Shown here: positions 10,901 through 33,779 of the stretch, in pieces
Layout of the letters: every line of letters begins with the position of its first letter
How positions within the stretch are numbered: position 1 is the stretch's first letter
Source of the DNA: Rhizaria sp. SCN 62-66
Lineage: Eukaryota
Direction of reading: 5' to 3'
Assembly: GCA_001724265.1 (NCBI GenBank)
Contig: MEDY01000101.1
Coordinates: 124,001-157,779, forward strand
Length of the DNA stretch: 33,779 bases
Made by a program: the position numbers and the translations under genes
Notes under the pieces: generated by a model
Database searches by the model: none
Seen by the model: the letters and a program-made list of their open reading frames with translations, nothing else
What the model was told of the DNA's origin: nothing

Positions 10901-13900
10901 GACCTCGGCCTGGAACGCGTTCTCCAAGTGCTTAAGCCGGTTCACCTCGTGCGGCAGGAACTGCAGCGCAGCCACGCGCTCCTCGGCGCCGCGCAGCCGG
11001 GCCTCGAGCTCGCGCCGCGCGCGCGCAGTGTCCTGCAGCTCCGCCTCGCGGTGGCGCAGCTGGAACTCGAGGTTGAGCGCGCGGGCCTCGGCCTCGTTCG
11101 CGCGGCGCCGCGCCATGTCGCTGACGTCGGTGCCCTTGAGCGACTCCATGTTCTTGATGCGCTCGTTCAACGACGCGACCTGAAGATCGCGCTCCTCGAC
11201 GTCAAGACGCAGCTTGTTGAGCTTGTGTTTGGCGCGCTCGAGCTCCTCGCCGCGCTTGATAATCTCGGACCGCAGCTCGCTTGCCAGGCTCTCGAACTCC
11301 TTCTTGGCGCGGTTGTTTTCGTCCTCGAGCTCCTGCAGCGCGCGCTCGGTCGCCACCAGCCGCTCGTTCTGCAACCGCGCCGCCGCGGCCACGTCGACGA
11401 GCTCACCGGCGCGCGCCGCCGCCTCGGCCGCGGCCGCCTTGGCGCGGCGCTCGCTCTCAGCCAGCGCTGCGCGCGAGCGGTCCAGCTCGCCCTCGACGCC
11501 GGCCAGGTCGGTCGCCGCGCGGTGGCGAGCCTCGACGCCCTCGCGCTCGCGCGCCGCCACGGTGTCCTCGGCCTGCTTCGCGCGCGCCTCGAGCCCGTTG
11601 CCGCGCTCGGTCGCGCTGTGCAGCTGCTTGGCGGTCAGCGCCAGCTCGGCCTCCTTGCCCTGCAGCTGCACGCGCTGCTCGTCCAGCGCGCGCGCGGACT
11701 CGCGACGCGTCTTGTCCAGCTCCTCCTTGACCGCGGCCAGCGCGTCCGCCCGGTCCTGCAGCGCGGTCTTAGCGTCCGCCAGCGCCGACTCGAGCCGCTT
11801 CACGCTGCTGTCGAGCGCGCGGCCCTCGGTCAGCGCGCGCTCGGCACGCTCGCGCTCGCCCTCAAGCGCGTGTTTGGTCTCGGCCACGGCGCGCGTGGCA
11901 GCCGCGAGCTGCTGCGTGAGCTCCTGCTGGCGCGCCTCGGCGTCCGCGATGCGCTCCGCCGCACGCTCGGCCTTGCCTTCGAGCACGGTGACCGCGGCCG
12001 AGTGCTCCGAGCGCAGCACCATGAGCTCGCGCGCGTGCTCGGCCGCCAGCTGCTGTACCTCGCGCGTGTGCGCCGCCGCAGCATCCTGCACTTCGCGCGC
12101 GCGCACCGACGCCGCCTCGCTCTGCTCGCGCGCGCGCGTCGTCGCCAAGTCGTGCAGCTCCTTGGCGTGCGCCGCCGCGGTCGCCTGCGCTTCCTTGGTG
12201 CGCTCGGCCGCGGCGGTGGACGCCTCGCGCGCCGCGGTGGCGTCGCGCTGGGCCAGCTCCTTCGCGGCCGCGGCCTCGCGGGCGGCCGATTCCTTGGCGG
12301 CGGCCGCGGCGGCCGAGGCGGCGGCCTCGCGCGCGGCGATGAGCTCGCGCTGGTGGTCCTCCTTAAGGCGCGCGGCCTCGGCGAAGGAGTGCTCGCGCAG
12401 CTGGAACACGTCCTGTGTGTGCGCGTCGCGCAGCTTGGCCATCTCGCGCGCGTTGTTCTCGCGGATCGCTGCCAGCTCGGCGTTGACGGCGTCGCGCTCG
12501 CCGCGCAGCTGCGTCACAAGCCGCTGCGACTCTTCGATGCGCGTCGCCGCGGCAGCCAGCTCCGTGTTGGCGCGCTCGCGGGCGAGCTTGAGCCCTTCGC
12601 CGGCCTGCGTGAGCGAGTCGAGCAGCGCCGTCTGCGAGCGCGCGACTTCCTCGGCCTTTGTCAGCGCCAGCTCGAAGTGCGACACCTGCGCCTTGGCGCT
12701 GCCGAGCTCGGCCGTCGCGCGTGCGTACTCTTGCTGCAGCGCGGTGAGCGCCTCGGCCAGGTCCTCGCCGCGGCCGCGCGCCATGTGCACCTCGTCGGCG
12801 AGCTCCTGCTTCTCTGCGTGCAGCTTGTCGACGCGCATGAGGCACTCCTCGTAGCGCGCCTCAAAGTCGCGGCAGCTCGCCACGGCGGCCTGGCGCGCGG
12901 CCTCAGCCTCGGCGAGCAGCCCGGCCTGCTGCTGCTGCGCCGCCAACTGCTGCGCCTGCGTCAGCGCGTCGAGCTGCGCCTGCACCGCCGCCGTCGCCGC
13001 GTTGGCATGACTGCTCGCGGTCGCCACCTGCGCCGCGGCCACGGGCTGCTGCTGCACCGTGATCTGCAGCGAGTGGAGCTGCTGCGTCTGCGCGTCGATG
13101 CGTGTCTGCAGCGCCGCGTTGCGCGCAGTGAGGTCTTTGGCCTCGGCCTCCCAGCGGCGCACGTCCGCGCGGAGGTCCTTGACGACTGTGTCGTTGATGT
13201 GCGCTACGGCGGCCTGCTCGCCGCGCAGCTTGCTCTTGACTAGCGCCTCGTACTCCTTCAGCAGCGTCTCGAGCCGCGACCGCAGCTCGGTGGTCTCGCG
13301 CGCGTGTTGCTCAGTCGCGGCGCGCCGCTCCTTCTCCGCGGACTCCTTCCCGAGCGCCATGTGCCGCTCGGCCTCGGCCAGCACGGCCGCGCGTGTGCGC
13401 TCCGCGGTGAGCTCCTCCTCGAAGCGCGTCTTGGCGGCCGCGGCCTCGGCCAGGCGCTGCGCGTATTTCTGCCGCAGCGCCTCGTGCGCGCGCGCCAGCC
13501 GCGTGCGTTCCTCAACGGCCGTGTCGCGCTCGCGCGCGGCGGCCGCGGCGGCGGCGAGGCTCTCAGCCACGCGCGCACCCAGCTCGTTCGCGCGCGCCTG
13601 CATCACGCGGGCCTCCTCGTTGGCCTCGCTGGCCGCCGAGCGCATCTCGTCGTAGGCGCCCGCGGCGTCGGCCCAGGCCGCGCGCAGCTGCGGCACAGCC
13701 TCAACGCGCGCCTCCAGCTCGCCCACGTGCCGCTGCAGCGCCGCGATGAGGCCGTGCAGCTGGTCCTGCTTGCCGCGCATCGCGTGGCACTCGTCGCGCG
13801 CCGACAGCACGCCCTGTTGCGCGGCCGCCAGCTGCGCCACGGCGTCCTGCGTACCCGCGCGCGCGCTGCGGAGCTCGGCCTCGAGCGCCTCGTTGCGCGC

Positions 13901-16645: not shown

Positions 16646-17530
16646 GACGCAAGCCCGTGCGACGGAACAAACGTGGATTTAAAAATCCAACGCACCACTA
16701 AGGTCTAACTAATAAGAATTACGTGCTAAGTCTCGTTAAAGTCACTAAAGTATTTGGGGAAAGGCAGGGAAGAAGATGGAAAGACGGGAGCGCGCCGGTG
16801 AGATGAGCCCAGTCAGAGCAATGAGCAAGGTAGCCAGAACACTTAGATGCCGCACCCGTATATAAAAATTATTAAACAAATCGGTAGATTCTCACGAATA
16901 AACAGCATGCATTCAGTAACATTTCAAACCAACGGTTTCCTGACGCTCTGCACGCGGCCAAGAATCGTCTTTTGGTTTGAACTTGACTTGGCGGCAAACG
17001 ACTGTGGCCACAGCCAACGGGCTGGACTCGGTCGGCTGCTTGCTGTGGCCGAGTGGCGGACCGCGAGGGGGCGGCGACGTGCACCCAAACTGCAAATAGA
17101 TTTGTAGCGGTGGGACTTCGGTCAATGCTCGATCTGGTTGTTTTTTAGGGATATTGGCGTGTTTTATTGTCTGATTCTATTTCAAAATCTGTGTTAGGCT
17201 TTTCTCTGACGTGTAACGGTGGTGGCGACGCCTGTCCTTGCTCAACCGCCGATGCTCGCACTCTGCTTCGCTCATTTACGATCCGGGATATGAAATATCG
17301 AGTTCAATACGACTTATCTTTGGATATGTTAACTTTAATCGCGTAACTCATTTCTGCGCTAAGCTAAATCTTCATTGGCTTTTATGATGCTTGTCAGTGG
17401 CGGTCTCAATCCCATCGGCCTCTGACGTTACCATACTTCCATCTACTTCTCGCTCACTGTTTATTCTACAACATGACTCTCTTTACAATGATTGCCTTTT
17501 GCCATGGTGCTGTGCCTGCTTAGCTTTCCG
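16646..17530. promoter_or_regulatory. Divergent intergenic region (putative bidirectional promoter and 5' UTRs)
   Basis: Lies between the head-to-head starts at 16645 (-) and 17531 (+), and is AT-richer than the exons. A TATATAAAA element is at 16859-16867. Function is inferred from position only. Confidence 0.35.
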
Positions 17531-18452
17531 ATGCGCGTTATCGCCGTCCTTCTCCTTGCGCTTGTCGCGTCTGTCTTTGCGTGCTCCGTCACGACGCCCT
17601 CCGGTTCGTTTCCCCTCCTGACTCGAAACAACTGCATATCTCTGCGCCACGACCCTCGATCACGACTAGACTTTAGTCGTGTATACTGGACTTGATTTCA
17701 ACACAGTACACGCAATCTCAATTTATATTGGCTTGATCTCATTTCGGTACACTTTCTCTATGCGCTTCTCCTTTGTGTAACCACCTTTAGGCAAGAAGTT
17801 CTCCTTCCCCACCCTGTCGTCCAAGACCTTCACTGTCCCCGGCGCCGACTTCGGCCAGGGCTCTGCCTTCACTCTGTCTTACAAGTTCTGCGGCAACACC
17901 GACTCCCCCTGCCTCAACGGCGAGTCGGCGTCGGTGTGCCTGAACCGCGACGTGTCGCCCATGGCCATCGCTGGCTTCTGGGACGCCTCGCACGCCGTCG
18001 ACGTGTCCGACCTGGAGGGGGGCGGCGTCAGCATCCTCGTCACGGGCAAGCCGCTCTTCGGCGAGCAGGTCTGGACCACCACCTTCAACGTCTACTGCGG
18101 CAAGGAGACCTCGCCCGTGGGCTCAACCGAGACCACCAAGATCACTCTCGGCTTCTCGCACCCCGACGCGTGCGGCGGCGGCGACTCCGGCCTCTCGGGC
18201 GGCTCCATCTTCCTCATCATCCTGCTCTGCGTGACGGTTGTCTACGTCATTGCCGGCTGCGTCTACAACGTTAAGCGCAACCAGACGCCCCTCGGCTGCG
18301 CATCGTGCCCGAACAAGGACTTCTGGTTCGCTATCCCCGGGCTCGCTAAGGCCGGCTGCGCATTCACCGTTCTCAAGATCAAGGGCTGCGTCGGCGGCAG
18401 TGGCAGCAGCAGCGCCGCCGCCGCTGAGGGCTCCGGCTACGGCTCTGTCTGA
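17531..18452 (+). CDS. MRH-domain type I membrane protein, cation-dependent mannose-6-phosphate receptor / Atg27-like (244 aa, 2 exons)
   Basis: Exons 17531-17603 and 17791-18452, with a phase-1 intron GTTCGT..TTTAG at 17604-17790. Features: signal peptide MRVIAVLLLALVASVFA; lumenal domain with 6 Cys ending HPDAC; GLSGGSIFLIILLCVTVVYVIAGCVYN transmembrane segment; family-typical tail PNKDFWFAIPGLAKAGCAF; terminal YGSV (YxxPhi sorting motif). Confidence 0.85.
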
Positions 18453-19379
18453 GTGCGCTAAACACGCTAAATGCGCTCAGTGGACTCAACAACGACGCTG
18501 TTGACAGCTGGTAAAACAACTTCATGACATGTATCGAAACAACTCCAATGCCTCTGCGATCACGCGCATCGATCAACAAGCATACCTACTAAGTACTGTA
18601 CTAACGTGGCTCTTGACGGACTCTGTGTTTGCACAGTGGCTGCGGGGTTAAACTGTTTGTGCAGAGTGAGGGCCTGTGGGCGCTGTGTACTGTTGCGTCT
18701 ATTGCTCTCGTCGTCATTGTTCATTTTAACGTAGAATACGGTTTTTTTTGCCGCGTACTTCCGACTCCTTTATTGTGATGTATGATCAGACTAATAGCAA
18801 CATTAATACACGCCTACATAGCTTTTCGCGACGCATTATGATTTGAATTTGTTGATGGATGAAGCAGAAAATTTGTATTTGTGTTATTGTTTGATATATT
18901 GCGATGCGTTATCGACTTTCTTTGGTTGAAGAGTGATACTAGTAAAAGTGAAATGAGATTCGCGACGAAAGCGAAATGAGATACTACATACTATTGTGTT
19001 AATATTCATACGTATATATGGAGTGGCTGATGCACGAAACAAGGAAATAAAATAAAATACTGGTAGTTGCTACTTCGACAACAACAGTGTGTGCGTTGGC
19101 AAAGCTAATGAGAGAGAACGTGCGCGAATGAGATGTTAAGATGTGAAACTGAAAAGGTAAGAAAGGGGAAGACATGATCCAGACTTGGCAGCATCACTCA
19201 CTTGCAATACCCCTTTTTAGCGCTGGAAGATGATAAAACGTACATGATATGTAGCAATGGCGCGACCATAGCGTGGCAACGGGCACTGATTTAGTAGAAG
19301 AAGATAGAGAAGTCCGACTACGCTCACCGTAGCACCGCGCCACAGACGCGGGATCATTTATACAAGGCATGAGTAAAGC

Positions 19380-19870
19380 GTGTGTCAAAAGTGGTGGTGC
19401 GGTTTGAGACGGTCACGGGGACTGTGGAGGTCGAGAATGGCGGCCGCGAGTGTGAAAGTGACCGAAGGAGTGACAACGCCTCAAGCAGACACGCTGACTA
19501 AGTGAGCAACGGAGTACAGAAAATGATGAAAAGGGGACTGAGGGGGACTAAACAAGCTTAAAAAGGACACTCAGGTGTTGAGGGCAGACTGGATGGAGAA
19601 AGATGGCGTAAACTCCGCGCAAGTTGAGACTGCTCAGTGACGACACACGGCAACTTGCCTGCATTCCTGCAAGGATTAGTAAATACGACAGCTGTGAGGA
19701 TCTTGCTGTCGGCGTTGTTGTTGATGAGAATGGTATTAGTAAGACGTATTATGCTGATAATGATGCAATCGTCGAGATAGACACCCAGGATCCGAAGACC
19801 AACAGAGTTGTCGAATTGTTGCGGCTGAAGAAGCAAAGATTAGCATTGACTGTGGGCCTCGGTGAGTCTC
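19380..19870 (+). pseudogene. Possible degenerate beta-propeller/NHL-repeat-like coding remnant
   Basis: Fragments interrupted by stops and at least one frame change: VVVRFETVTGTVEVENG, GHSGVEGRLDGE, and LAVGVVVDENGISKTYYADNDAIVEID (in ORF 19624-19947). They resemble NHL blade motifs by eye. There is no ATG, and the codon usage differs from the GC-rich genes. Confidence 0.2.
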
Positions 19871-20822
19871 AAAAGCATGTAACAATACTACTGATCAGTA
19901 ATACTGCTACAACTCGGATAGCAAACGAAAATGACAGAACAAAATAACGGAAAAATTAACGCAAAACACAACAACAACAAAAGCGGCATGAAACTAACAA
20001 CAGCTGGCCCGTTACAGAGCCGTATTGATCGATCAAGTGGCTGCAAGCGCGCTATTATGCAATTATAGACAGGAACGGAGCATCGAAAAAAGGTGACTGA
20101 GAGCCGATATGAGGATATGAAATGCTGGAAGTCTTTAGCACAGCCTGGTGACGCTTGCGATAGCGGGAGCGGCACCAGCAGGAGCAAGAGCAACAGCGAT
20201 GCGCAAAAGAGCGACGACAGTCCGGACGAACATGTCTCAACATACACAACAAGCTACGCACAATCAACCCCGAAAAGTAACGAAATATACCCAGGGGAAA
20301 CAAAGAAAATGGCGAAGCCAACTCAGACTGAGAGTTGACCGAAGAAAAATGCATATTGTGAAAAGCAGCGCAGATCCATGCAGAGCAACGTAAAGCAACG
20401 TACAGACAGCAAAACAACGCAACGCAGATAGCCAAAACAAAACAAAAGCTCAACACAACATACCGGAAGCAAAAGCACAGAAAAAGCGAGGAGGCAAAAC
20501 AAACGCAACTGAAGCGTCAACCAATGCAGGAGACAGCGCAACAAGACGCGACGCAGCACGCAGAGCGTTGCATTGCATGGTGCTGTGAATCAATCCTGAC
20601 ATGATTAGACACATAGGTCGTCCAGAGAACTTAGTTGGAAGGTTGTACATACGCAACGGCTTACCTCAAATCTCGAATAAGTTGTTTAAACAAAGAAAAT
20701 AAAATTTAAGCTGAGAATAAAAACAAGCGGATATATAACGACAAACGCAAGAGAGAAAGACCGCAGATAATGCAGATCCTGACGAACCCCGCATATCTCT
20801 ACGAATTGGCAGATAGTGTCGC

Positions 20823-23480
20823 TCAGCAGCAGTCGCCCATGCCCTGAAAGACGTCAACAATGCAGTCGCAGTCGCACTCATTGCAACATCCGAGCGCGTT
20901 GGCGGCGACGGTGCCGAAGCCGCCGGCAATTGCACTGGCGGCGTTGGTCATTGTAGCGCCGACGTTGCCGAAGACCGCGGCCACGGCGCCGACGGCGACG
21001 ACGGCACCGATGGCCGTGGCGGCGATGTACTCGGTGCGGCGCTCGCTGTTGGATAACATCGCGCGGCTGACTGCGAGGCGCTTGGCCTCGGACTGCTGCT
21101 GCGAGGCCTTGGCGTCCTCGTCCTCCTCGGCGGCCGTGGCGGTACCGTCGCCCTTCTGCTGCGCACGCTCGCGCTCGTCGGCCTCGCGCGTCTTCTTGAC
21201 GGTGCGCGTCTCGTCCTCCTCTTTGCCCGCGCGCTGCATCTCCTGCTCGTACTTGGCGCGCTCGCTGGGTGACATCTCGAACGTCACCATGGTCGTGAAG
21301 GGCGACGGGATACGCGACTTGATCGAGAGGTCGATAACTTCCTGCTTAATCTCACGCGTGTCTTCGAGCCAGGCCTTGGCGATGAGCAGGTCCATGCGCT
21401 GCTTGAGGAACACGCGCGCCACCGGCACCGACGGGTCCTCGGACACGGGCAGGAACACCGTCTGCGACATGCCCGCCGCGTCGTCGCCGCGCAGCGTAAT
21501 GCCGGCGGGGAAGCCGCGGACGGCAGAGTACTTGCCGGCGACCACGAGAGGCGCGCCCAGGAAGAGATCGGGCAGCGGGAAAGGGTACAGCTGGCAGTCA
21601 TCAACGTTCTCAATGTCCATGGTAAGATCCGTCAGCACGGGCAGCTCGGCCATCGACAGCAGCATCGTCACCTGCTCGTAGATCTGCTCGTGGTACACCA
21701 CGTTGGCGTTGAAACCGCGGGTAAGCGAAGCCAGCATCTGCAGGAAGTACCAGTTGCAGTAGGTGCCGATGCCGAAGGTGAGGATACGCGTGTTGCCGGC
21801 CGCCTGCACCACCATGCGGCAAATCTCACGGTCGTTTTCCACGGCGCCGTCAGTCAGCAGGAAGACGAAGTTGAGGCCCTTCTGGATCTTGCCCAGCAGA
21901 GACAGCGCCCAGCGCAGCGGCGCCTCGATCGTGGTGCCGCCGAAGGTGGGCTTCTTCTCGCGGACCCAATTAAAGGCGACCTCGACGTTGCGCGCGGTCG
22001 CGGGCACCATGTCCTCGTGCAGTGCCATCATGTTGTGGTCGAACGCCATGATATTGAACTTGTCGTAGGGCCCGAGTTTCGACAGCGCGACGCGCAGCCC
22101 GCGGAGCGCCTCTTCGAAGGGCTGCCCCACCATGGAGCCGGAGCGGTCGATCAGGAAGACGAAGTTGCGCCGGAACTGCTTCTCGATGCGGTCCACCGAG
22201 GGCGGCGTGACGAAGGCCACAAAGGAGCCCTCCTCGCGGACCGACTCGACGCGCCCGTCCGCGCCCAGGATCTCGGTCCGCCGGTCCACGGACTTGAGCA
22301 GCGAGCCCGAAATATCGCCCAGCGGCAGCTCGAAGTGCAGGTTGAAGATATCCAGCGGGGGCGCGGCGGTGGCGGCCGCGGCGGCGCCGGCGTCGCTGCC
22401 GCTGTGCGCACTGGCGAAGTTAGCGGCGGCCGCGGCGGCCTCGGCGTCGGATAGCAGCGCGAGCGCGGAGGCCTCGGCGGCGGCGGCCTCCTCGGTGCTG
22501 GGGATGATGACGTTGAAGCGTTTGTGCGTGCCCATGTTGGTGACCTCGAGCGCGTGCGAGGCCGACATGATGCGGACCTGCGACGACATCGCGAAGACGG
22601 AGCCGCGGATGGCAATCGCGCTGGGGTCGGGGCGCAGCCCGGCGGGGAAGGACAGCGGGAGATTGAAGCCGTAGCTGCCCTGGAAGAAGGAGAGGGACTC
22701 GACGTAGTCGACCTCGATCTGAACGACCTCCTTGGCGTTGACGCCAAGGATGGGCAGGCGGAACAGGTCCGGAACGTACTCGTTGATGTTCTCCAGCGGG
22801 ATCTGGCGCGACACGCGCGGCGGCGCGAGCTGCGAGTTGAGGCGCAGCATGTCCTCTGTGTTGATGATCTCGGACTGCACGTAGCGGTCCTGGCCGATCT
22901 TGGCCTGAATGGCCGTGACGGTGCCCTTGAGCGGCAGCGCGAAGACGCCGTCGATCGGCCGGTCAGAGGTGTTCGCAAAGGCCACGCGCATCGAGATGAT
23001 GGCCGTGGAGAGGTGGATGCTGACCGTGACGTCGACGTACACGGCGGGTAGCGAGAAGACGGATTCGCGGTTGTAGTACCAGAAGCACGGCGCGGCGGGC
23101 TTGTTCTGCAGGAACGTCTCCGCGGGCACGCTCACCAGTGGCTTGTTCATGATCGTCGGCAGCGTCGTGCGCATCGTGTTCTCGATCGCGTCCATGCTCT
23201 GCGTCTTGAGCGTCGCGTCGAGCTGCTTCGCGCCAGCGGGGGCTGCAGTGGAGGAGGCGGCAGGGCCAGGAGCAGCGCCAGCGTTGGTACTAGCGCCAAC
23301 GGAAGTGGCGCCGGGCGCGGGGCCAGAGCCAGGGGTGGCTGGCACGGGGGCGATGGGTGCGGAGGGCGGGGGAGGCGGCAGGGCGGTGGCGTTAAGGTTC
23401 GGGTTGCTGTTGTTGTGGGGGGGAGCGGGAGCGTTGCCGCCGCTGTGCCCGTCGTGCGGGGATCGAGCACTAGAGCTCAT
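20823..23480 (-). CDS. VIT + von Willebrand factor A domain protein (inter-alpha-trypsin inhibitor heavy chain-related / VWA5-like) with Cys-rich C-terminus (~885 aa)
   Basis: Single open frame from ATG 23480 to TGA 20823. VIT-like region: RVAFANTSDRPIDGVFALPLKGTVTAIQAKIG. vWA domain with complete MIDAS: VFLIDRSGSM, GGTTI, FLLTDG, followed by RILTFGIGTYCNWYFLQMLA, YPFPLPDLFLGAPLVVAGKY and PSPFTTMV. An in-frame acceptor (TTTCCCAG at 23496) lies 15 nt upstream of the ATG, so an additional 5' exon is possible. Confidence 0.85.
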   Translation of the reverse strand: MSSSARSPHDGHSGGNAPAPPHNNSNPNLNATALPPPPPSAPIAPVPATPGSGPAPGATSVGASTNAGAAPGPAASSTAAPAGAKQLDATLKTQSMDAIENTMRTTLPTIMNKPLVSVPAETFLQNKPAAPCFWYYNRESVFSLPAVYVDVTVSIHLSTAIISMRVAFANTSDRPIDGVFALPLKGTVTAIQAKIGQDRYVQSEIINTEDMLRLNSQLAPPRVSRQIPLENINEYVPDLFRLPILGVNAKEVVQIEVDYVESLSFFQGSYGFNLPLSFPAGLRPDPSAIAIRGSVFAMSSQVRIMSASHALEVTNMGTHKRFNVIIPSTEEAAAAEASALALLSDAEAAAAAANFASAHSGSDAGAAAAATAAPPLDIFNLHFELPLGDISGSLLKSVDRRTEILGADGRVESVREEGSFVAFVTPPSVDRIEKQFRRNFVFLIDRSGSMVGQPFEEALRGLRVALSKLGPYDKFNIMAFDHNMMALHEDMVPATARNVEVAFNWVREKKPTFGGTTIEAPLRWALSLLGKIQKGLNFVFLLTDGAVENDREICRMVVQAAGNTRILTFGIGTYCNWYFLQMLASLTRGFNANVVYHEQIYEQVTMLLSMAELPVLTDLTMDIENVDDCQLYPFPLPDLFLGAPLVVAGKYSAVRGFPAGITLRGDDAAGMSQTVFLPVSEDPSVPVARVFLKQRMDLLIAKAWLEDTREIKQEVIDLSIKSRIPSPFTTMVTFEMSPSERAKYEQEMQRAGKEEDETRTVKKTREADERERAQQKGDGTATAAEEDEDAKASQQQSEAKRLAVSRAMLSNSERRTEYIAATAIGAVVAVGAVAAVFGNVGATMTNAASAIAGGFGTVAANALGCCNECDCDCIVDVFQGMGDCC

Positions 23481-24176
23481 GGGGCTTCCAGTGATCTGGG
23501 AAACACAAAAAGAAAGCAATGAAGCGAAAACACAATGTAGCAGAAGAGGGCAGGGTGAAGGGGAGTGAGGAAGAGCGAAGGAAGAATGACAGCGGGAGAA
23601 ACGTAAAGGGGCGCTTCAGAAAGCTGGGAGGGTGCGCAGGAAGACGCGCCAGGTCAGATAAGGGCAATGATACGACGAGAAACACTAAAAGATTGAAATG
23701 AAATAACATGGACAAGAGAAATCATGTGTGTGCTGAAACGAATGTGAACCGTAGAATGCGCAGGCAATGCGCCAAAGTCCAAGGCTTCGGCCGGCGGTGA
23801 TGAGGAACGAAAGTGGAGTCGCAAGGACCGTGTCTGGAACACCGGGAAGCGTTCATCGACTCGGTGCCAAATAAAAACACAGAGTCTGTTCTAGTTACAT
23901 CCCATAATATCAGTAATAAGCGTGCGAAGCGACGTCAATGTGGCAGGGTAAGGGCGCAAATCATAACGACCGAACACCTCTCCTTCGCTCGTTCGCCGAG
24001 GCATCCCTTTTTTCGGTACGGCGAGTGCTTTCACTCGACAAACGCATCAAGAAGTTCGCTAGTGGCAACAAAAATCATGTTGCATGTATTATTTGATAAA
24101 AGTTCACTTAAATAAATATCAATTCGCTCACTATTCTGTTATTGATCACTCGTATGCTTTTCACACTTGTTTGGCG

Positions 24177-26790
24177 TTAATTGGCGGCGTCCTCAGGGTG
24201 CCATCCGCATTCGTTGATGATGAACTGCGCCATCTTGTTCATGGCGGCCTGACTCTCGGGCAGGAAGGGAACCAGCGGGAACACGTGGAACATCCCGGGC
24301 CACACCTCAACCTCCCACTTAGACGCCCCCAACACACCTTTAGACGCATCAGCAGCAACCATAGTCGCCGCGGTAGCAGTGGGTCCACTCTTCGTTGCCC
24401 GCTGCCGCTGCTCGTGCCTCTCCCGCAGGTGCCGCTGCAGCTGCAACTGCGCGCGCTGCCGCGCCGCCCCGGGCACTGCCAGCTGCAGCACCACGGGCGC
24501 AGCGCATCTCGCCACCGCGCCTGGGGGGTCCGGCGCGGTCAGAGCGGCCCAGTCCTTGGCAGTCATGTTGCCACCTCCGTCGCCGCTGCCGCCGCTGCTG
24601 CCGTCGGCGTCGGTCTCCGGCGCGCTCGTCGCTGTTGCGAGACCGCCGCCATTGGCTGCAGTTGCGGCGGGACTGCTGGTCGCAGCAGGGGTCGCGTTGA
24701 CGAGGTTGTTGCTCCCGGCTATAGCCGAGGTGCCTGTTGTGGCCTTGATGCTGATGTGAGACTTCTTGCCGCCCTTGAGGGGGCACAAGCCCTCGCAAGC
24801 CTTCCCATCATCACTGCCAACGCTGATGCTAACAGAAGCATTGTCAGCACTCGCACTCACAGTCGCACTCTCATTCGACCTGTCTGCGCCTAGCCCGCCG
24901 TTGCCGTCGGCTAAGTACCCCTTGACGGCCTCGAAGGGCGCGAGCGCGTCCGACAGCAGCACCTCGCGGCCGCCAACCTGCACCAGTGTCGGCGGCAGCA
25001 GCGCCAGCTCCAGCGCCGTCGCGCGCGCGGGCGACGCCAGCGGGTGGCTCAGCACGGCGAAGGCGGCCGCAGAGTCCACGGCATCGGCCTCGGCGGCGCT
25101 CAGCTCGTGAACCGCGTCGTTATCGCTATGGAGGTTGTTCGACACAGCGTCGTGGCTACTGTTGCTGATGCTGCTCGTATTTGCGCTGTGGACATGGCTA
25201 TTCGCTGTCACGGTGTTAGGACGCTCACTCTCAGCGTCATCGCGATGGTGGCGACTGCTGTCGTCAGACAGCCCGATGAGCCTCTCTGTGGCTCTATGTA
25301 GCGCGCCCGCGACGGCAGCCGTGACTCTGGCGCCCGCCCGCCGCCCCTCGCTCTGGTTCACGGTCACCGCGCCAACGGCGGCCGCCACGGCGCCGCCCAG
25401 CGCGGCCGCCACCGCGTCCTCGGCCCGGTGCGCGGCCTGCCCCACGGCCCGGATGCCCTTGGTCACAGTTGCGGCGGCGGCGGCGGAGGCGGTGGGGAAG
25501 GCAAAGCGGCCGGTGAGCGCGCGCGCGGCAACGGCGACGGCGGCGGCGGGGATCATGGGGTCCGCGTCCTGGAGCGTGGTGACGGACTCGCCCGCGCAGG
25601 CCAAGTCGCCCCACGGGGATAACACGGCCACGGCCGCGGGCGCGGGCAGCCCCGCGCGGGAGATGGCCAAGGAGAGCGACAGGGCAAGGTTGCCGCCCGC
25701 CGAGTCGCCGGCGAGGCATATGCGGCTGGGGAGGACGCCGCGGCGCAGCAGGGCGGTATAGGCGGCCAGGGCGTCCTCGAGCGGCGCGGGAAAGAGATGC
25801 TCGGGGGCCAGACGGTAGTCGATCGACAGGATGCCGAGACTGGACGCAACGTTGTTGGTCTCGTCGCTATTGTTACTATTGCTGTTGTTGCTGTGTGAGC
25901 CGCCGAGTTGCGCAGCGAGCTTGAGGAGCAGCGTGGAGCAGAACTCCTCGTAGACAGACCAGCGCGGCGAGCCCATGACGTAGGCGCCGCCGTGCATAAA
26001 GAGCACAACGCGCGACTCCGGGCCAGGACCGGAGGCGGGGCCGGGAGCGGGACCAGAGCTGGGGCTCGAGACTGAGGCAGATGCGGCATGCGAGCTCGTG
26101 TGCTGGGCGTCACTTGCGGCGGGATGACTCGGACTCGCAGCGGGCGCGAGGTCAGGCCACTTGGCGTCGACGGCGCGCCTCAGGGGCCCGCAGACCGTGG
26201 GCAAGGTGGCATGCACGAGCGCGCGTTCACGGTCGCGCTCGCGGTCGCGGCGGGCGGCGGCCACGGCGGCGGCGACAGCGGCCGAGTCCTCGGTCGCGGA
26301 GTGACCGTGAGCAGCGGAGTGACCGTGGACAGGAGGGGTCAGAGAGTACCACTGGGCCTTAATGGGGAACGGGACGTCACTAGGGGCAGTATAACTTTCA
26401 GTACCCAAGATACCTGTGACCCCTGGAGTGCTGCTGAGAGGTGAAGCCGCCAGAGCAAGCGCCTCGGCCTCAGTTTGCAGCAGCGCCGACAGATGCTCAC
26501 GCTCGCTGCCGCTGCCCCCGCTCGACTCAGACTCGCTGTTGCTGTTACTGCTGTTGCTGTTGCTGTTGTTGCTGTTATTGCAATTCTTCAGGTGCGGTAA
26601 ATACAGCTGTTCATGTTGGAGCGAGAGCAGGTAAGCCGCGTGCTCTGCCGAAAAGTCAAGCCGCGCGAGGCAGGCGGGCGAGACGGAGCACGCCCCCGAA
26701 GCGCACGTGGCGCACTGTGTCTGTGCGCTGCTGGGAGGCATCGCGACGGTCGTCGAGCTCTCAGCAGCAGCACGGGGGGCGTCGGTGCCG

Positions 26791-26822
<32 letters not shown>

Positions 26823-27655
26823 CGTCGTTGCCGCTTGGGGGGCGATCGTGTGATCGACGGCAGCCTTGACGGCCGCGGCCGCCGCGTCGGCTTTGTGCGA
26901 GCTAACGCGCACGTGCACCTTACCCTTAGCGTGCGCTCTAGTCTCTCCACCAGTGCCAGCGCCAGCGCCAGTGCCAGTACGAGTGTCAGTGCTAGTGTGA
27001 GTGTGTGTGTTGATGGGCAGCGAGAGCGCGCGCGCCAGCTCGGGGCTATGCTGCGGCAGCGGCACCGGCACGGCGCGCTCCGCAACCGCGGCCGCCGCCA
27101 CGGCAGCCGGGCGGTCGCCAGCGCCGCTCTCGCTCGTGTGCTGCTGCTGTTGTTGCTGCGGCGTCGTCTGCGGCGGCGGGAACAGGGTGTACGGCGACGA
27201 TACCAGGTCGGCGGCGATGGACGCGCGGATCTGGCGCGCCGAGGGGCAGTAGTACGCCGGCGGGAGCGTGAGGGACCGCGAGACAACGCCGCGGGAGGCG
27301 AAGTGGCGCGCGCGCAGCTGCCAGGGCTTCTGGAGCGTCCAGTTAGTGCCCCAGCGAGTCGTGCGGAACTGGTCTGAAATGCGATAAATAGCAACATAAA
27401 CAAAACCCCAAACAATAAGTCTCTTATAAAATATATGAATCAATACATATTATGTTTTTGCAAGATTTTGTTCGGATTTGTGTTGATCACGGTACCTAGC
27501 GGGAGCTTGGAGAGCACGGTGAGGTGCGTCTTGATCATGCGCGTGGCGGTGCGGATGAATAGGTCCGACTTGCCCGACAGGGCGCGCTTGTCGAGCGATT
27601 TGGTCGCAGCGGCAAGCACGTCAGCAAGCGCATTGGGCGCGCTGCGCTTCGGCAT
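24177..27655 (-). CDS. Alpha/beta hydrolase, hormone-sensitive lipase (HSL/GDXG) family esterase-lipase (1118 aa, 2 exons)
   Basis: Exons 27655-27496 and 27373-24177, with a phase-1 intron GTACCG..TTTCAG at 27495-27374 (junction KLPL-D-QFR). Motifs in order: VLFMHGGAY (oxyanion hole), IDYRLAPEHLFPAPLED, LAGDSAGGNLAL (nucleophile), LSPWGDL, LPPTLVQVGGREVLLSD (acid), WPGMFHVF (His). Confidence 0.9.
26535..26581. repeat. (GCTGTT)n-type coding microsatellite (Asn/Ser run in the hydrolase)
   Basis: Imperfect tandem hexamers encode NNSNNSNSNSSNSNS. Similar tracts occur at about 26788-26822 and 25866-25893. Confidence 0.7.
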
Positions 27656-28145
27656 TGCAGGTGGAAAATGATAAGACGCGGTCGAGAGGGGCCGAAGACG
27701 TGGGTCTGGGATAGGATAGGGGACGCGAATGGCCGAGGTCAGGAAATGAATGATGTGATCAGCTATCAAGCATCAAATGGTACAAGAATTCAATATAATG
27801 TTCATCCGCCGTATGAAAAAGTGCTGATGTGTAATAAAGGCTAGAATACCCCTTGGTTATATTAGAATGGGTCTTATTGGTTGGGGCTGGAGAGCGTCGA
27901 CCGCAAACGTCTCGCGAGCCAGTGCCGCACCCAAGAACATCTTCATGTTTTAGTATAGATATCGCTGTAGAATCCGTCAGCGACTATGATATAACGTCAA
28001 CGTATACCTACTTATTATATGTATATAATATATTAATGATTCTTTCTTTAAAACTAATCTTGCCTCTCTACGCGCTTCGTCTCGCAATCACCCCACCCTG
28101 TTGCTGACTCGTCTCCGTCGCCGCCCCCGCAGAGCCCGCCGCGCG
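27656..28145. promoter_or_regulatory. Short divergent intergenic region (putative bidirectional promoter, hydrolase/SRP9)
   Basis: 490 nt between head-to-head ATGs, with an AT-rich core at about 27950-28060. Inferred from position only. Confidence 0.35.
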
Positions 28146-29272
28146 ATGCAGTGCGAGACCCTGGTGGACTTCCTCGGCAAGGCCAAGGAGTTCTTTCTCG
28201 AGGACCCCTACGAGGTACGGCTTTACTCTCAACCCTCCTGTCTACGGCCTCTATCACCTCTCCCTGCTTGTTCGAGGTGACTCTGCCTGCCAACACTCAC
28301 TCGCTCTGTATCGCTCGCAATCTCACTGTTTTTTGTCGTTACTATCTGTGTGTTGATGCCCATAGACCCTGTTTAAGATGAAGTACTCCCCGTGCAACCA
28401 GCGCGTGACATTCGCCGTGCGCCTCAACTCCAAGGTCCGTCGCTACTTCCCCGCATCCCTCTCACTCGTGACTCACACACTCATGGCCACCACTTCATGG
28501 GTCGAGATCGATATCTCGATGAAACAAGGTCTCATGTTGCCAATACGTGGAAAATAGTATTTCACTGTTGGACTACTTCTTTTTGGAACAGCTTGGCTCT
28601 GCTTATGATCGTCCTGTGTGTCTGTGCTGTTTTGCAAGCCCTTTTCTCTTTTCTTTTGTTATCTTGAACCCTGCTCTCACTCTCAATCTCTCTCTGCACG
28701 TTGCATTGTCCTGTTTGTCTTGTGTCTTGCCCCGTTACAGCACGCGTCGTACACCACGCAGTCGCAGGAGGAGGCCAAGAAGGCTGACGTCATCAACTCT
28801 GCCTTCATCCAGGTACGTATCATTCACATCGCTTTCGTACAGCTACAGCTATCATATAACCTGTTCAAATAGCTCACTTTGCACTTTTATGTTTTCTTGT
28901 GCTCTTTGCTTTGGACCGTTGTAGCTTGCTGCGTGCCCCAAGATTGACGCGGCGACCATCGATCTGATGTTCCAGCAGCCCGAGGAGGCGGCAGAGGTAC
29001 GCAAACTGACTTAAGCTTAAGCAAAGATGCAATGAAATCAAATGACGCAATTCGAGTATCACTCGATTAAACTAGTGCAGTGTGGCATGAAACTGTGTAA
29101 ACTACTTTTAAATGCATTAAATAGCAATCACTTTGCGAAATTCCGTCTGTCAGCTCGGACTGTAACGATGGTACGATCTGACACCACCACACATCCGCGC
29201 CTTTTTGTCATTTATCGCATGTTAAAGGAAAAGAAGGCGCCCGCCAATGCGCCCAAGCACAAGAAGGTCTAA
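28146..29272 (+). CDS. SRP9: Signal recognition particle 9 kDa protein (108 aa, 5 exons)
   Basis: Exons 28146-28214, 28366-28434, 28741-28812, 28925-28996, 29228-29272, all joined by phase-0 GT..AG introns. Protein: MQCETLVDFLGKAKEFFLEDPYETLFKMKYSPCNQRVTFAVRLNSKHASYTTQSQEEAKKADVINSAFIQLAACPKIDAATIDLMFQQPEEAAEEKKAPANAPKHKKV. It is colinear with the SRP9 pattern as I recall it (F..A..LF..DP..T...MKY..C.....[YF].T.Q.Q[DE].KK....N..F..L, basic tail). Confidence 0.8.
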
Positions 29273-30240
29273 GTCAGCTCTCTACGACGCAGCCAGCATC
29301 TCAGTGTCCCATTAGACTGCGCAACGAACGAAGCGAAGCCACAGCAAGCAACTGGAACAGTCATGTTCTGCGAGTGAGCTTCGGAACAGTACAATAGTAT
29401 TATATCTCCATGTATGAATAAGAATAACGACAAAATCAAACTTGTTTATTTCAATAACCATTCAAAACTAGCAAATAAAACTCAATCCTTGAAAACACTG
29501 CACTGGCGAGCTTGTTTGTAGCAATGTAGGCTGTTCGCAACGAGAGAAGAGTGTTAACAATATTTGAATTCGTTGAATGTGTGTTATTTTGTATTTTTGG
29601 CTTGCTACTCGTCGTATGGCGCAACTTGTGCATACAACGAGCAGTGTTGATGAGTACGTATAATCCCGTACACATGTCGATACGCTTTAAGCGTACTTAT
29701 TAATGCTACTTCGTCATGCAACTTAGTCATGCAAGCGCACGCGGTGGTGGCATTATTACATAACTGGGGTACACAGCCGAGCAAACGACCCTGTCGCCGC
29801 CCCCCCAGCCCCCGTGCCAGCTCCACCCAGGCCGCAGTATCTAATGAGAAAGCACAGTGTCCACATGCGTGAACATGTCCAACTTAGAATGCGACTCGGA
29901 TAAAGCCGGAATAACGGACAGATCATGTGCGTCAATCCACGGAGTGAAAGAAACAAAACATAAACGAGGACAAAAAGTGAAATTTGATTCACAGAACAAA
30001 AGAAACTCAACTCGCGTGACGTGAAATGTTATGAAAAGCAAAACGATTCACGCCTGGGAATAAGATTATCAATAAACGCGTCGGCAAACGGCCGATACAG
30101 ATGGACAGTACAGATGTACTGTTGGCTCCTTGTGCTAAATCAAACCCGCCCAACTAAGTACCCCCAGACAAGTCTAAGCTGTCACTAAGACGAGTCTCAT
30201 AAACAAGTGCAGTCGTATGCCCAATGTGTGCGTGTCTCAT

Positions 30241-30276
30241 CATGTGTGTGGAGATGTGTAGATGTGTGTGTGTGTG
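30241..30276. repeat. (TG)n-rich microsatellite
   Basis: atgtgtgtg/gatgtgt units ending in (TG)7 at 30263-30276, in the convergent intergenic/3' UTR region. Confidence 0.6.
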
Positions 30277-30618
30277 CGACCGAAAAACAAAAAGAAAATA
30301 ACTAAACTATCAAACTAACTATTACTAACTCTCAAGGAGAGAAGGAAAATGAAACAAAATAGCTCATGCTGCCTTAGATATACCACGCAAGCACGACTCA
30401 CAAAAACGAACAACATGTACAGAACTACAGGAACGAGAAACAGTATACAGTATACCAATATACACGCAAGAAAGCAAGAAAAAGACTTAAAACCTTAAGA
30501 CTGAATGAAAAACAAAACAAAAACACACCTTTGATATGAAGAGGAAAAAAAAAAGCACACATCCACAGAAACGCAAGGGACGCACTCAAGAGTACCCGGC
30601 CCCTCAGCCCTCGGAGGT

Positions 30619-33197
30619 TTAGACGGGCGGCACGGTGGCGGTGGCGCTGGCACTGGCGCCGACGCCGCCGGTGAGCATGCCCTGCTCGCGCATCATGCCC
30701 AGCACCGACTCGTAGGCGAGGAAGCCTGCGGCGTTGGCGGGCCACGCGCGCAGCGTGCACACGCCGAAGCCGCGCCACAGCTCGCCCCAGCCCTTGCGGC
30801 GCACGGTCTGCTGCACGGCGGAGAAGAACCCACCGTCCAAAAGCCAGGGGTTCTTCTTGAAGAGCGTGGGCTTGTTCCACGGCTCGGCCTGGATCTGCGA
30901 CTTGATGTAGTCCATCGGGTAGGAGGCCACCCAGGCTGCCATGCCCGCCGCGCCGCCAGAGAAGAGCAGCTCGGCGACGGACAGCTCCGACTCGACGCGG
31001 TTCCCGTTCGCCATGAAGCGGCGCTTGAGGTACTCGTAGCAATAGAACTGGCCCGCGTAGCCGGGGATCTCGCGGTAGACCGTCGCCGCCATGCCGCGAA
31101 ACAGGCCTGGGGGGGAAAACGAAGAACAAGAGAAACAGTGAGAGTACATGATGAGAGACGAACATTTGGGGAAACACACAGAATTAGTCATATATGCCTA
31201 TTATGAACGGATATTTAGTCGTGTTCTGGTACTTCGATACAGAATACGTCTATCCATATGTGATATCTTGCGTACCCTTGATGCCCGAGGCCTTGAGGAT
31301 GTGCTGCACGCAGTCGAGCGGGCCCTGGAAGGCGCGCCCGGCAGACGTGTTGCCGTACTGGATCTGCAGGCGCGTCTTGATCAGCTCCACGGGCGACACG
31401 ATCAAGCTGTTGATGGCGCCCGCGTACGCGCCCGCGGCGGCAATCTGCCACAGCTCCAGCTCCTTACCCACGCCCGCCTGGCGCTGGAAAAAGTCGCGAC
31501 CCTGTAGTTCAAAGAAAGAAAGCCGCCACCGGTCAGCAAAGATCAGGCAAAATAAGTAAGCGGAATGAATTATATAATCACAAAGACGATATGTTTTGAG
31601 GCTGAAACTTTGATATAGTAAAATATAATAATATCAAAAAATGTAAATATTATTGTAATTAAAACGGGCAGCCTTATGGTCGAGAAACCCCATTTTTTGT
31701 TTCTCACTCTCTCCTTCCGCGAAGGTCTTGATATCTCGAGATAGATAGACGTACCTGTGCGTATGCGGCAAAGACGAGCGCGTTGAGCAGCGGGATAGTG
31801 GCCATGGGCGATGCCATGCCCTTGTACAGCGCCCAGGGCCCCTCCTTGCGCACGGTGTCGAGCACGACCTGCATCGCCGTGCGCGACCGCGCCGCCGTCT
31901 GCATGCGCACCTTGACCGTGTCGAACGGGTGCCCCACAAGTGTAATAGCCACGCCCGCGGCCGTGCCCGCCACGAAGTCCTGCAGCGGCGACGCCTCCAG
32001 GTGCATCTTGTGGTGCAGGAAGTCGCTGCGGCCCGCCTTGTACCACGATTGCAGGAAAAGCTCGCCCTCGGAGCGCGGGGAGCGCAGGTAGATCTTGAGA
32101 ATCTGTCATTGTTGAGATACCAAAACAGAAATACACAAAAGATATTAATAAGACATATGATTAGCGTAATTTGAAATAAAAACAAATACTGTGGTGTAAT
32201 TGAAAGTCTAAATTTGAAATATAATACTAATTTTCAATTTTACTGAAATCATTAGGAAATATCTTGGTTTTAGTAAAATGACGTGGGAATTAGGCGCACG
32301 TACCTGCGCGAAGTGGATCTCCTGCTGTTCGCCGCCCTTGTTGACGGCGCGAAACATGTGGCTGAGCTGTTTGTCGCTGGGGTTGAGTCCGGCCTCAAGG
32401 AAGGCGGACTTGACCTGCGTGGGCGTGAGCAGCATGTCGTGCTTGAGACCGAACTTGTTCTGCATCAGCGTTAGGCACGCGTAGATGGCGTAGAACTCAG
32501 CAAAGCTCACGCGGCCCGAGCGCGTGGTGTCGGCGATGCGGAAGATGCGCTCGGCGTCGGCGCGCGTGAAGCTGATGGACGCGTCGAACATGCCCAGCCC
32601 CACGACCAGGTCGTCAACCGTGATGGTCTGGTCGTTGTCCGAGTCGAGCTGCGTGAACACGTCAAAGGCGCGCTGGATGCACGCCAAACGCGACGAGTCC
32701 ACGTGTCGCCGCTTGATCGGGCCGAACGCGTGCGACGCCGACCCGAACGCAGGCGGCAGCGCAGACTGAGCAGCCTCGGAGCCCGAGCCCGAGTCAGCAG
32801 CAGCAGCGGTAGAGGCAGAGGCAGAGGCAGAGGAGGGGGCGAGTGCGGCGGTGGTGGCGGCAAGGCTGCCGTCGTCGTCCTCATTCTCGTCGTCATCGTC
32901 GTCATCGTCGTCGTCGTCGCCCTCGAGAGAGAGCATCACCCGTTGTGGCTGTTGTTGTTGATGTGTCCCTGTAGTTGTGGCAGTCGAGACGGCGGCCGCG
33001 GTGGACTGGGCGAGCGCGGACGCGGCGGCGACGGCGGCGGCGGCAGCGGGGTTGGCGCCGGCCCCGCTGCCGTTTGCGGCTGCTGCGCCGCCGTCCGGGC
33101 CCGTGGCCGCGAGCGCCGATGCGCAGAGCGCGACGGGGTAGAGCGCGCTGAAGGCCCGCATGACGCGCGCGTACAGCACCAACGACGCGCGGCTCAT
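30619..33197 (-). CDS. EF-hand-containing mitochondrial carrier (SLC25), carrier domain carnitine/basic-amino-acid type (>=651 aa, >=4 exons)
   Basis: Exons (33197 or upstream)-32304, 32102-31755, 31501-31276, 31106-30619. Junctions: HFAQ|ILKI, AYAQ|GRDF, GIK-G-LFRG. Three Px[DE]xx[KR] signatures: HPFDTVKVRMQ, SPVELIKTRLQ, YPMDYIKSQIQ. EF-hand loops DSDNDQTITVDD and DTTRSGRVSFAE, plus two degenerate helix-loop-helix units. The start is uncertain: the first in-frame ATG is 33197, but the frame is open up to 33281 and an upstream exon (ATG 33506) is possible. Confidence 0.9.
32811..32918. repeat. Coding simple repeats: (AGAGGC)n (Ser-Ala) and (TCG/TCA)n (poly-Asp)
   Basis: Hexamer run at 32811-32833 and trinucleotide run at 32871-32918, encoding SASASAS and DDDDDDDDDENEDDD upstream of the EF-hands. 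Confidence 0.7.
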
Positions 33198-33779
33198 CGA
33201 CGCAAACGGTGACGCGTCCGACACGGCGGCAGCGGCGGCGACAGCGGCGGCGGGTGCGGCGACGGCGCGCGGCGGGGCGCGCTAGGGAGACGACGCCAGA
33301 GGCGCGGCAGGCGAGCCGGAGGGGACGGGGCAGCGGAGCACGTCGCGGACGCGAACGGGCGCGTTTAGCGGCAAAGGCGCGCGGGAAGGGCCATGGGTGG
33401 CGGTAGTAGCGTGGGAAGTTGAGATTTCATGTTCGAAGGCGCGTGCGGGGGCGGTGCACGAGTTCAAGGAAAGAGAGGCTAGCTTGCCTTGACCGTTGGG
33501 GTCCATTTTGATCGCGAAGCTTACAGCGGAGACAAACAAGTCTGTTTGGTTTTTTCGTTGTGGGAAAGCGTAAAAAGTGCGTTCTTCTTCACTAACCAGC
33601 AATAAGACATCAACTAACGGACGGTTAAGTGACGTTGAGTGAGGTTTAAAAGGCTCGGCCCTCTAGCCTCCGAACCACACCTCACACGGGGGTCGCGAAT
33701 TGGGCCGTTTGCCTCTCCCACCCCACATGTTTGTGATGTTGAGGCACCCCCCATCCCCAATAAACATCCCTAGATTACC

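Follow-up and report, generated by a model that had tools for sequence, protein, structure and literature searches.

Among the mitochondrial carriers of the SLC25 family, the relevant sections of two reviews name the ATP-Mg/Pi carriers (APC) and the aspartate/glutamate carriers (AGC) as the ones that bear EF-hands (PMC12410006, PMC7611774), and those of a paper on APC evolution and of a review of amino-acid carriers likewise name only these two (PMC6283063, PMC6769469). In APC, as described there, the Ca2+-loaded domain binds a helix, and at low Ca2+ this helix is freed onto the carrier, blocking transport (PMC12410006, PMC7611774). AGC is described with eight EF-hands and a C-terminal helix domain (PMC7611774), and passages of two papers treat its regulatory role as now disputed (PMC12410006, PMC11539162). 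We analyzed a stretch of DNA of 33,779 nucleotides (nt) assigned to Rhizaria sp. SCN 62-66 (contig MEDY01000101.1, positions 124,001 to 157,779; hereafter the window), in which a minus-strand gene at 30619-33197 joins an EF-hand domain to a carrier of another type. A first-pass annotation of the window had pointed to this gene and had proposed that domain shuffling may have placed acylcarnitine or basic-amino-acid transport under Ca2+ control. The gene and its relatives apparently make up a conserved, unstudied third kind of EF-hand-bearing carrier besides APC and AGC; no description of an EF-hand domain on a carrier of the CAC/SLC25A29 type was found in the literature, supplementary tables, which may list such architectures, being outside the scope of that search.

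The four exons of the gene, joined by script, give an open 1956-nt frame (651 codons plus TAA), and the 651-residue product can be aligned over its whole length with fused homologues. The first-pass annotation had set the extent at 30619-32680. Its 30619 end stands, since the TAA occupies 30619-30621 on the minus strand, but the 5' end lies about 500 nt further upstream: the frame with the EF-hand loops has no stop between 33281 and intron 1, and its first ATG is at 33197. One intron and an intact carrier had also been described; the three carrier repeats are indeed complete, but two more GT..AG introns split the carrier. The quoted EF-hand loops, the GTACGT...ACAG intron with its 32304/32102 junction and the carrier motifs were all recovered on the minus strand, far beyond chance. 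Contigs of four public runs (X1 to X4) were placed on 30400-33300; X1 is labelled as metagenomic RNA-Seq cDNA from wastewater and shares one sample with X2, X3 is a poly-A metatranscriptome, and X4 is DNA-like. The G+C content (GC) is 66-69% in all four exons, and the parts of the gene are as follows.

30619..33197, minus strand: whole coding region, four exons in a continuous frame, aligned with fused homologues
32304..33197, minus strand: exon 1, N-terminal extension and EF-hand domain as far as the loop of the degenerate hand 4 (open reading frame, translation, Pfam)
32103..32303, minus strand: intron 1, 201 nt, GT..AG, 27% GC, removed exactly in an X1 contig and present in X4
31755..32102, minus strand: exon 2, end of EF-hand 4, linker and carrier repeat 1 (Mito_carr, expectation value (E) 2.8e-17)
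31502..31754, minus strand: intron 2, 253 nt, GT..AG, 36% GC, removed in X1 and X2 contigs and present in X4
31276..31501, minus strand: exon 3, first part of carrier repeat 2 (Mito_carr, E 2.6e-12)
31107..31275, minus strand: intron 3, 169 nt, GT..AG, phase 1, 40% GC, placed by homology only
30619..31106, minus strand: exon 4, remainder of repeat 2, repeat 3 and the stop codon TAA (Mito_carr, E 7e-25)

The joining of the EF-hand block to the carrier was seen directly in the contigs. A 300-nt contig of X1 covers 31977-32102 and then 32304-32470 with 0 mismatches, so that the 201 nt of intron 1 are skipped exactly, with ends that read CT..AC on the plus strand. A 246-nt contig, found in both X1 and X2, joins 31346-31500/1 to 31754/5-31844, again with 0 mismatches. 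Because the X4 contigs 31409-31842 and 31813-32558 are contiguous, match with 0 mismatches and hold introns 1 and 2, the skipped form in X1 is spliced RNA and not an intron-less DNA copy. The X1 contig bridges 32102 and 32304, and therefore the EF-hand exon and the first carrier exon lie on one mRNA; the in-frame splice proposed in the first-pass annotation is thus borne out, and the EF-hand and carrier parts are one gene with one transcript. The removal of intron 3 restores ...ILKASGIKGLFRGM..., which is colinear with the homologues P0006 and P0007. The spliced or exact RNA-type contigs reach into exon 1 as far as 32470 and cover little of exon 4, the parts beyond them being uninformative, and joints at 32870-33260 were ignored as the product of simple GAC/GCC repeats. 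The sequence of the gene turns up in wastewater and activated-sludge data; it is a genuine nuclear gene of a GC-rich protist, and the host is possibly a rhizarian.

Two further observations concern the same contigs. In X3, a contig (31016-31270) runs unspliced from exon 4 into intron 3, which may reflect a retained intron, pre-mRNA or carried-over DNA; if the intron-3-retaining form were translated, the protein would end after ...SGIKGTQDITYG. X4 also has contigs that are 90-95% alike (31337-31505, 31788-31794), with many third-position-like differences over exon 3, and one X4 contig joins 31505 to 31750, the intervening letters not being known. These divergent contigs suggest that the sample also contains a strain, allele or paralogue related to this gene, with a differing intron 2.

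The N-terminal domain was evaluated by Pfam, by the EF-hand loop pattern, which we take to be PROSITE PS00018, and by comparison with homologue models. Exon 1 matches EF-hand_7 (PF13499; E 2.4e-14, 53.8 bits against a cut-off of 30) and also EF-hand_1 and EF-hand_6. The EF-hand domain comprises about 135 residues (170-304) in a four-hand layout, in which hand 1 fits the pattern and hand 2 nearly does; no match to the pattern was obtained in the second lobe (hands 3 and 4). The features of this part are listed below.

33105..33182, minus strand: N-terminal hydrophobic segment, residues 6-31, lineage-specific (motif in common with P0302)
32871..32918, minus strand: poly-Asp/Glu tract within an Ala/Ser-rich low-complexity region, residues 94-109 (translation)
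32610..32645, minus strand: EF-hand 1 loop DSDNDQTITVDD, residues 185-196 (fits the assumed loop pattern)
32496..32531, minus strand: EF-hand 2 loop DTTRSGRVSFAE, residues 223-234 (best Pfam EF-hand_1 stretch)
32304..32396, minus strand: second lobe with two degenerate EF-hand-like loops, residues 268-279 and 286-298 (helix-loop-helix in homologue models)
32019..32072, minus strand: linker helix SEGELFLQSWYKAGRSDF, residues 309-326, with the family-invariant Trp (alignment and models)

The closest relative in the N-terminus is the fragment P0302, which shares the YARVMR..F.AL.PVA motif of the N-terminal segment and also has the acidic tract and both EF-hand loops. In its model, the stretch matching the hydrophobic segment is a helix (17-43) with a predicted local distance difference test score (pLDDT) of 54-71, and lobe 1 is predicted at pLDDT 94-98. 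The conservation of the hydrophobic motif in P0302 supports ATG 33197 as the start. The poly-Asp/Glu tract is a simple repeat that draws hundreds of unrelated contigs in contig mapping. The EF-hand 2 loop is conserved, being nearly identical in P0007, P0006 and P0302.

The AlphaFold model of homologue P0009 (pLDDT 79) has eight helices in the four-hand layout, then a helix at 164-177, and then a six-helix carrier. This predicted linker helix (pLDDT about 57-60) is also found at 310-330 of the P0302 model (pLDDT 80-87), and its Trp (W171 of P0009) is invariant in 18/18 aligned sequences. Searched against the PDB by sequence, the N-domain of the window protein matches generic EF-hand proteins (URE3-BP at E 1.4e-6, a PDCD6 homologue, calcium-dependent protein kinases and calmodulin), and SCaMC-1 (4zcu), at E 5e-3, is no closer than calmodulin. 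Foldseek with the N-domain of the P0009 model returned centrin/Cdc31, calmodulin and APC regulatory domains at E 2.6e-3 to 3e-2, the APC domains (4zcu, 4zcv, 4n5x) over 156-163 aligned columns. VIA-align with the P0302 model, which effectively covered model residues 159-245, gave, for lobes of calpain PEF, centrin, Cdc31 and calmodulin, Z 10-12 and a root-mean-square deviation of 1.5-2.5 A over 72-83 residues. As modelled, the fold is that of a calmodulin-like EF-hand domain, with no specific tie to APC.

The carrier domain is complete. Mito_carr (PF00153) matches exons 2, 3 and 4, giving three full repeats, and the carrier signatures, of the Px[DE]xx[KR]x[RK] type, are intact (PFDTVKVR, PVELIKTR and PMDYIKSQ, the third ending in Q). 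Through P0009, which is 60% identical, a six-helix barrel fold is predicted (UCP1 8hbv, E 1.4e-8, TMt 0.75), the Foldseek matches of that carrier being UCP1 and AAC structures at E 1.4e-8 to 1e-5. After helix 6 there are about 20 low-complexity residues only. The features used in the following comparison are these.

30685..31991, minus strand: carrier domain, residues 336-630 (three signature motifs, homologue model)
31060..31077, minus strand: YREIPG, with contact point II read as R-E (alignment column)
30826..30858, minus strand: family-specific insertion of about 8 residues in the repeat-3 matrix loop, KKNPWLLDGGF (alignment)

According to the contact-point section of the amino-acid carrier review, nucleotide carriers have G[IVLM] at contact point II, carboxylate carriers R[QHNT] and amino-acid carriers R[DE]; ORC1, BOU and SLC25A29 have RE there and BAC2 has RD, and SLC25A29 has no acidic or charged residue in the helix-2 contact segment (PMC6769469). 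In our alignment, the R and E of this point are invariant in 18/18 family members, and the same column reads RE in the SLC25A29, BOU-like and ORNT rows and RD in the BAC2 row. The helix-2 contact segment (PMATIPLLNALVF) of the window protein carries no charged residue, and helix 6 bears the Arg of LRAWPANAA, so that contact point III is Arg. By these residues, R-E at II, Arg at III and an uncharged helix-2 segment, the predicted binding site is of the amino-acid type. The fused rows and their EF-less near relatives have the repeat-3 insertion, the Andalucia row has part of it, and the CAC, SLC25A29, BAC2, BOU-like and ORNT rows of the alignment lack it.

The relationship of the carrier was assessed by sequence and structure searches. 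With the carrier region of homologue P0008 as the query, 298 proteins were found at E <= 1e-10, and all subfamily names among the 120 matches listed were carnitine/acylcarnitine carrier (CAC) or CAC-like, arginine transporter BAC2, basic amino acids transporter and SLC25A45. A profile of 18 fused proteins, searched against a 90%-identity collection, added SLC25A29-type and ornithine transporter names among its 120 matches listed. Identities of the window carrier are 65% with P0007 and 43% with both the 'CAC' of Andalucia godoyi (P0041) and the 'basic amino acids transporter' of Balamuthia; with plant BAC2 and BOU-like proteins they are 35-40%. Across CAC, SLC25A29, BAC2 and BOU-type carriers, the range is 33-44%. 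Automatic JGI labels of the K15109 type, 'carnitine/acylcarnitine transporter 20/29', are attached to P0005, P0126, P0127, P0131, P0338 and P0339, and in the Atlas structure search the top rank went to a cluster of carnitine/acylcarnitine carriers (TM 0.91 by target). The PDB search by sequence gave 10 matches, all AAC, UCP, GTP/GDP and OGC carriers, and none was a CAC-type or APC carrier domain. By best hits, automatic labels and contact-point logic, the carrier is placed within the CAC / SLC25A29 / BAC2 / BOU superclade, nearest to SLC25A20/29/45, BAC2 and BOU and not to SCaMC/APC or AGC, in agreement with the group that the first-pass annotation had named (SLC25A20/29/45, Crc1/BOU/Ymc).

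A tree of 66 rows and 300 columns was computed with IQ-TREE (LG+C20+F+G4; support given as ultrafast bootstrap / Shimodaira-Hasegawa-like approximate likelihood-ratio test), rooted on one long-branched ornithine-carrier row and with fragment P0302 left out. The 25 fused rows and 16 EF-less near relatives form one clade (99/97), to which Andalucia is sister (95/92). SLC25A29, BAC2 and Balamuthia form another (100/96), as do animal-fungal CAC (100/96) and the plant BOU-like proteins (99/98), and the fused-family clade meets these three at an unresolved node (95/77). The fused family therefore falls, with its EF-less relatives, in its own protist clade, orthologous to no characterised carrier (SLC25A20, SLC25A29, BAC2 or BOU). 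The acylcarnitine or basic-amino-acid carrier proposed in the first-pass annotation was accordingly right as to the nearest group, but a specificity is not assumable from it. P0006 and P0007 are the nearest neighbours of the window protein in the tree (98/90), and P0005 joins them next (100/94). All but two of the fused rows (23/25) fall into one weakly supported group (84/70), P0131 and P0133 standing apart in a basal polytomy. When all fused rows were constrained together, the N-truncated fragment P0265 among them, the cost was 3.3 log-likelihood units, and the approximately unbiased (AU) test did not reject the constraint (p = 0.155).

The fusion is not confined to the window. Exon 4, searched among longer proteins, gave 12 matches of 387-765 residues, 8 of which have precomputed EF-hand and Mito_carr domains. 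In the profile search, the top 21 rows were all fused or N-truncated fused proteins, and the fused P0266, P0302 and P0141 ranked lower, giving at least 24 fused proteins among the 120 matches listed. When the profile was run against 1.84 billion representatives at 50% identity, the best 150 rows included 10 carriers whose match extends into its N-domain part; the fused family is real but small. Its named members, all transcriptome-derived, are Paulinella micropora, Mataza sp. D1 and Leptophrys vorax in Rhizaria and Luapeleamoeba hula in Amoebozoa (Acanthamoebidae). The N-region of the window protein (residues 151-345) matches 22 of the 121 collected proteins at 23-57% identity, and the N-domain is therefore homologous across the family and not the result of repeated capture of unrelated EF-hand domains. 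A single fusion event fits, because the AU test is non-rejecting and the N-domains are homologous, and that one event probably took place in an ancestor common to the fused clade. The domain shuffling suggested in the first-pass annotation holds in that the fusion is real and the EF-hand domain shows no special closeness to SCaMC-1, but it is the property of a conserved family rather than a one-off event.

Other N-terminal and loop variations were observed in this clade. The fused proteins P0010, P0013, P0025 and P0017 have 60-130 low-complexity residues inserted in the repeat-2 matrix loop, and the window protein does not. In the EF-less oomycete relatives P0268, P0269 and P0276, a His/Cys-rich stretch of about 80 residues stands at the N-terminus in place of the EF-hand domain, with an HHxWCPRHNHYYDDR motif conserved across Saprolegnia, Aphanomyces and Achlya; it might be a different metal-binding regulatory head.

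We read the window protein, with a probability of roughly 0.6, as an inner-membrane transporter of three modules, an EF-hand domain, a Trp-bearing helix and an SLC25 carrier, in which the N-domain would sense Ca2+ and the helix would act as a pin like that of APC. The N-domain would face the intermembrane space and sense cytosolic Ca2+. By analogy with APC, the Ca2+-loaded EF-hand domain would hold the linker helix and leave the carrier free to cycle, and at low Ca2+ the helix would be released onto the carrier and block transport. As the substrate we would expect a zwitterion resembling an alpha-amino acid, for example a basic or methylated amino acid, glutamate or carnitine. We infer Ca2+ control of transport from this analogy, and the protein probably works like the ATP-Mg/Pi carrier family. 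That it stands for a third class of Ca2+-gated SLC25 carriers with an evolutionary origin of its own, present in Rhizaria and at least one amoebozoan and placing the mitochondrial uptake of an amino-acid-type substrate, such as a basic or methylated amino acid, glutamate or a carnitine ester, under cytosolic Ca2+ control, is a more tentative proposal, to which we lean somewhat less than halfway.

Several results weigh against this three-module, Ca2+-sensing reading. Position 12 of the EF-hand 1 loop is Asp and not Glu, the EF-hand 2 loop misses the assumed pattern at position 3 alone (Thr), and the second lobe is degenerate across the whole fused family. At least one loop fitting the pattern is present in 8 of 20 fused-family members, the window protein included, and lacking in the other 12. 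The P0009 model is weak from hand 4 to the linker (pLDDT 47-63), and the structure searches do not distinguish an APC-like regulatory domain from a calmodulin- or centrin-like one. A single sample (X1 = X2) supplies the RNA support, at a depth of about 5-6 and from a library labelled 'RNA? (probably DNA)', and no spliced contig across intron 3 was seen in runs X1-X4. The tree was confined to the fused family, its relatives and the CAC group, so it shows distinctness from the characterised members of that group and not membership itself. The fusion may be real and the EF-hand domain not a Ca2+ switch; its part would be in import, folding, oligomerisation or anchoring, and any Ca2+ binding would be constitutive. 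The missing canonical loops and the degenerate lobe fit such a role, as do the EF-less close relatives (Colponema, oomycetes, Plasmodiophora and Lapot), which evidently work without the domain, and citrin offers a precedent, its EF-hand domain being described, in the passages concerned, as not regulating transport and as having an import or structural role (PMC11539162). In the subclade of the window protein, however, neither loop of lobe 1 has lost its ligand-type residues, and the near identity of EF-hand 2 in P0007, P0006 and P0302 runs the same way. The invariance of the linker Trp is as expected of a captured helix, and the order of EF-hands, helix and carrier is that of APC, not of AGC. 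On balance, we consider a domain that is no Ca2+ switch less likely than the Ca2+-sensing reading, though it is the strongest of the alternatives.

The carrier could instead be an SCaMC/APC or AGC protein, and the whole an ordinary calcium-binding mitochondrial carrier. The Atlas language-model feature search speaks for this, and against our placement, by putting SCaMC clusters first (0.93) with an Aralar cluster at 0.89, and APC regulatory domains are among the Foldseek matches. We read the Atlas features as mirroring domain architecture and rejected them as evidence of SCaMC kinship, since they conflict with the sequence searches, with the contact point and with the Atlas structure row. No SCaMC, ATP-Mg/Pi, APC, aralar or citrin names occur among the 120 + 120 matches listed for the P0008 query and the profile search, and contact point II is R-E and not G[IVLM]. 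Named CAC/BAC-group proteins score 158-206 bits with the P0008 carrier region, against 74 bits for the best solved AAC with P0009, a different query. The N-domain matches calmodulin no worse than SCaMC-1, and an AGC would have eight EF-hands and a C-terminal helix domain where the window protein has about 135 residues and no such helix domain. We give this assignment very little credence. Less credible still is that two separate genes, or an artefact of the gene model, account for the fusion, with an EF-hand protein upstream and a carrier starting from ATG 32006. That ATG is in frame, and a carrier-only isoform from this internal start would be compatible with the contigs. Against two genes, the cDNA-type contig bridges the EF-hand and carrier exons exactly at GT..AG, the frame is continuous, and a single open reading frame encodes both parts in homologues, de novo transcripts among them.

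A third EF-hand family on an amino-acid/carnitine-type carrier, together with EF-less sister proteins, provides built-in controls. The fused family could show whether the design of EF-hands plus helix is a general, transferable gate for mitochondrial carriers, and it bears on the question of which step of metabolism is coupled to Ca2+ signals in protists. The automatic 'carnitine/acylcarnitine transporter 20/29' labels hide this distinct clade. If the proposal of a third Ca2+-gated class is true, the 'locking pin' design of APC evolved convergently on a different carrier lineage.

Elsewhere in the window, other large open frames were observed. On the plus strand, a frame of 2378 codons at 3-7139 runs off the 5' end of the window, is intron-free with about 70% GC, and matches Pfam ATG2_CAD in its C-terminal part (E 2.3e-40), as a gene for an ATG2-like lipid-transfer protein. 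The minus-strand frame at 10301-15019 (1572 codons, 67-77% GC, strongly negative AT skew) has no Pfam match at E 1e-3; it encodes a large uncharacterised protein, or else it is a low-complexity frame. Two large single-exon frames lie on the minus strand at 20823-23615 and 24177-27449; one encodes a VIT/VWA-domain protein (VWA_3, E 1.1e-17), and the other, of 1090 codons, a protein with an Abhydrolase_3 core (hormone-sensitive-lipase-like, E 2.4e-33). Exon borders are visible by composition, coding parts having about 65-77% GC against 27-53% in intergenic parts and introns (7001-8000, 16001-21000, 27001-30600). No Rfam family and no tRNA was found in scans of the window.

Compared with APC/SCaMC (SLC25A23/24/25, yeast Sal1), the window protein has the same order of N-terminal calmodulin-like EF-hands, short helix and carrier that the cited sections describe, and its N-domain fold, through the P0009 model, overlaps 4zcu, 4zcv and 4n5x. 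It differs from APC in the carrier, which has R-E at contact point II and not the AAC-like G[IVLM], in the EF-hands, two of four of which look competent by their residues against four Ca2+-binding hands in APC, and in the N-domain, which has no specific sequence kinship with that of APC. The lack of N-domain kinship and the different carrier type point to a fusion independent of APC, and we infer from the sequences that it arose independently of both the APC and the AGC fusions. With AGC (aralar/citrin; SLC25A12/13), the protein shares an EF-hand domain on an amino-acid-class carrier and R-[DE] at contact point II; it differs in having a single EF-hand domain, a short low-complexity C-terminus in place of a C-terminal helix domain, and a carrier whose best matches among those listed are in the CAC/SLC25A29/BAC2 group.

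SLC25A29, BAC2 and SLC25A45 resemble the carrier of the window protein in identity (33-43%), in R-E at contact point II and in the lack of an acidic residue in the helix-2 segment. Unlike the fused family, they have no N-terminal domain and no repeat-3 loop insertion, and SLC25A29 and BAC2 form a separate clade (100/96, against 99/97 for the fused family). CAC (SLC25A20) and plant BOU share the KEGG Orthology label CAC 20/29 and the RAxPANAA motif on helix 6; the CAC rows of Nematostella and Schistocerca read R-D where the fused family has R-E, and the animal-fungal CAC and BOU-like clades are separate from it. To our knowledge, CAC and BOU have no regulatory domain. Within the clade itself, the EF-less protist carriers (Colponema, Lapot, Plasmodiophora, Saprolegnia/Aphanomyces/Achlya and Picozoa, with Andalucia as sister), all uncharacterised, resemble the fused proteins in identity (45-54%), the repeat-3 insertion and R-E, but have short or unrelated N-termini without EF-hands.

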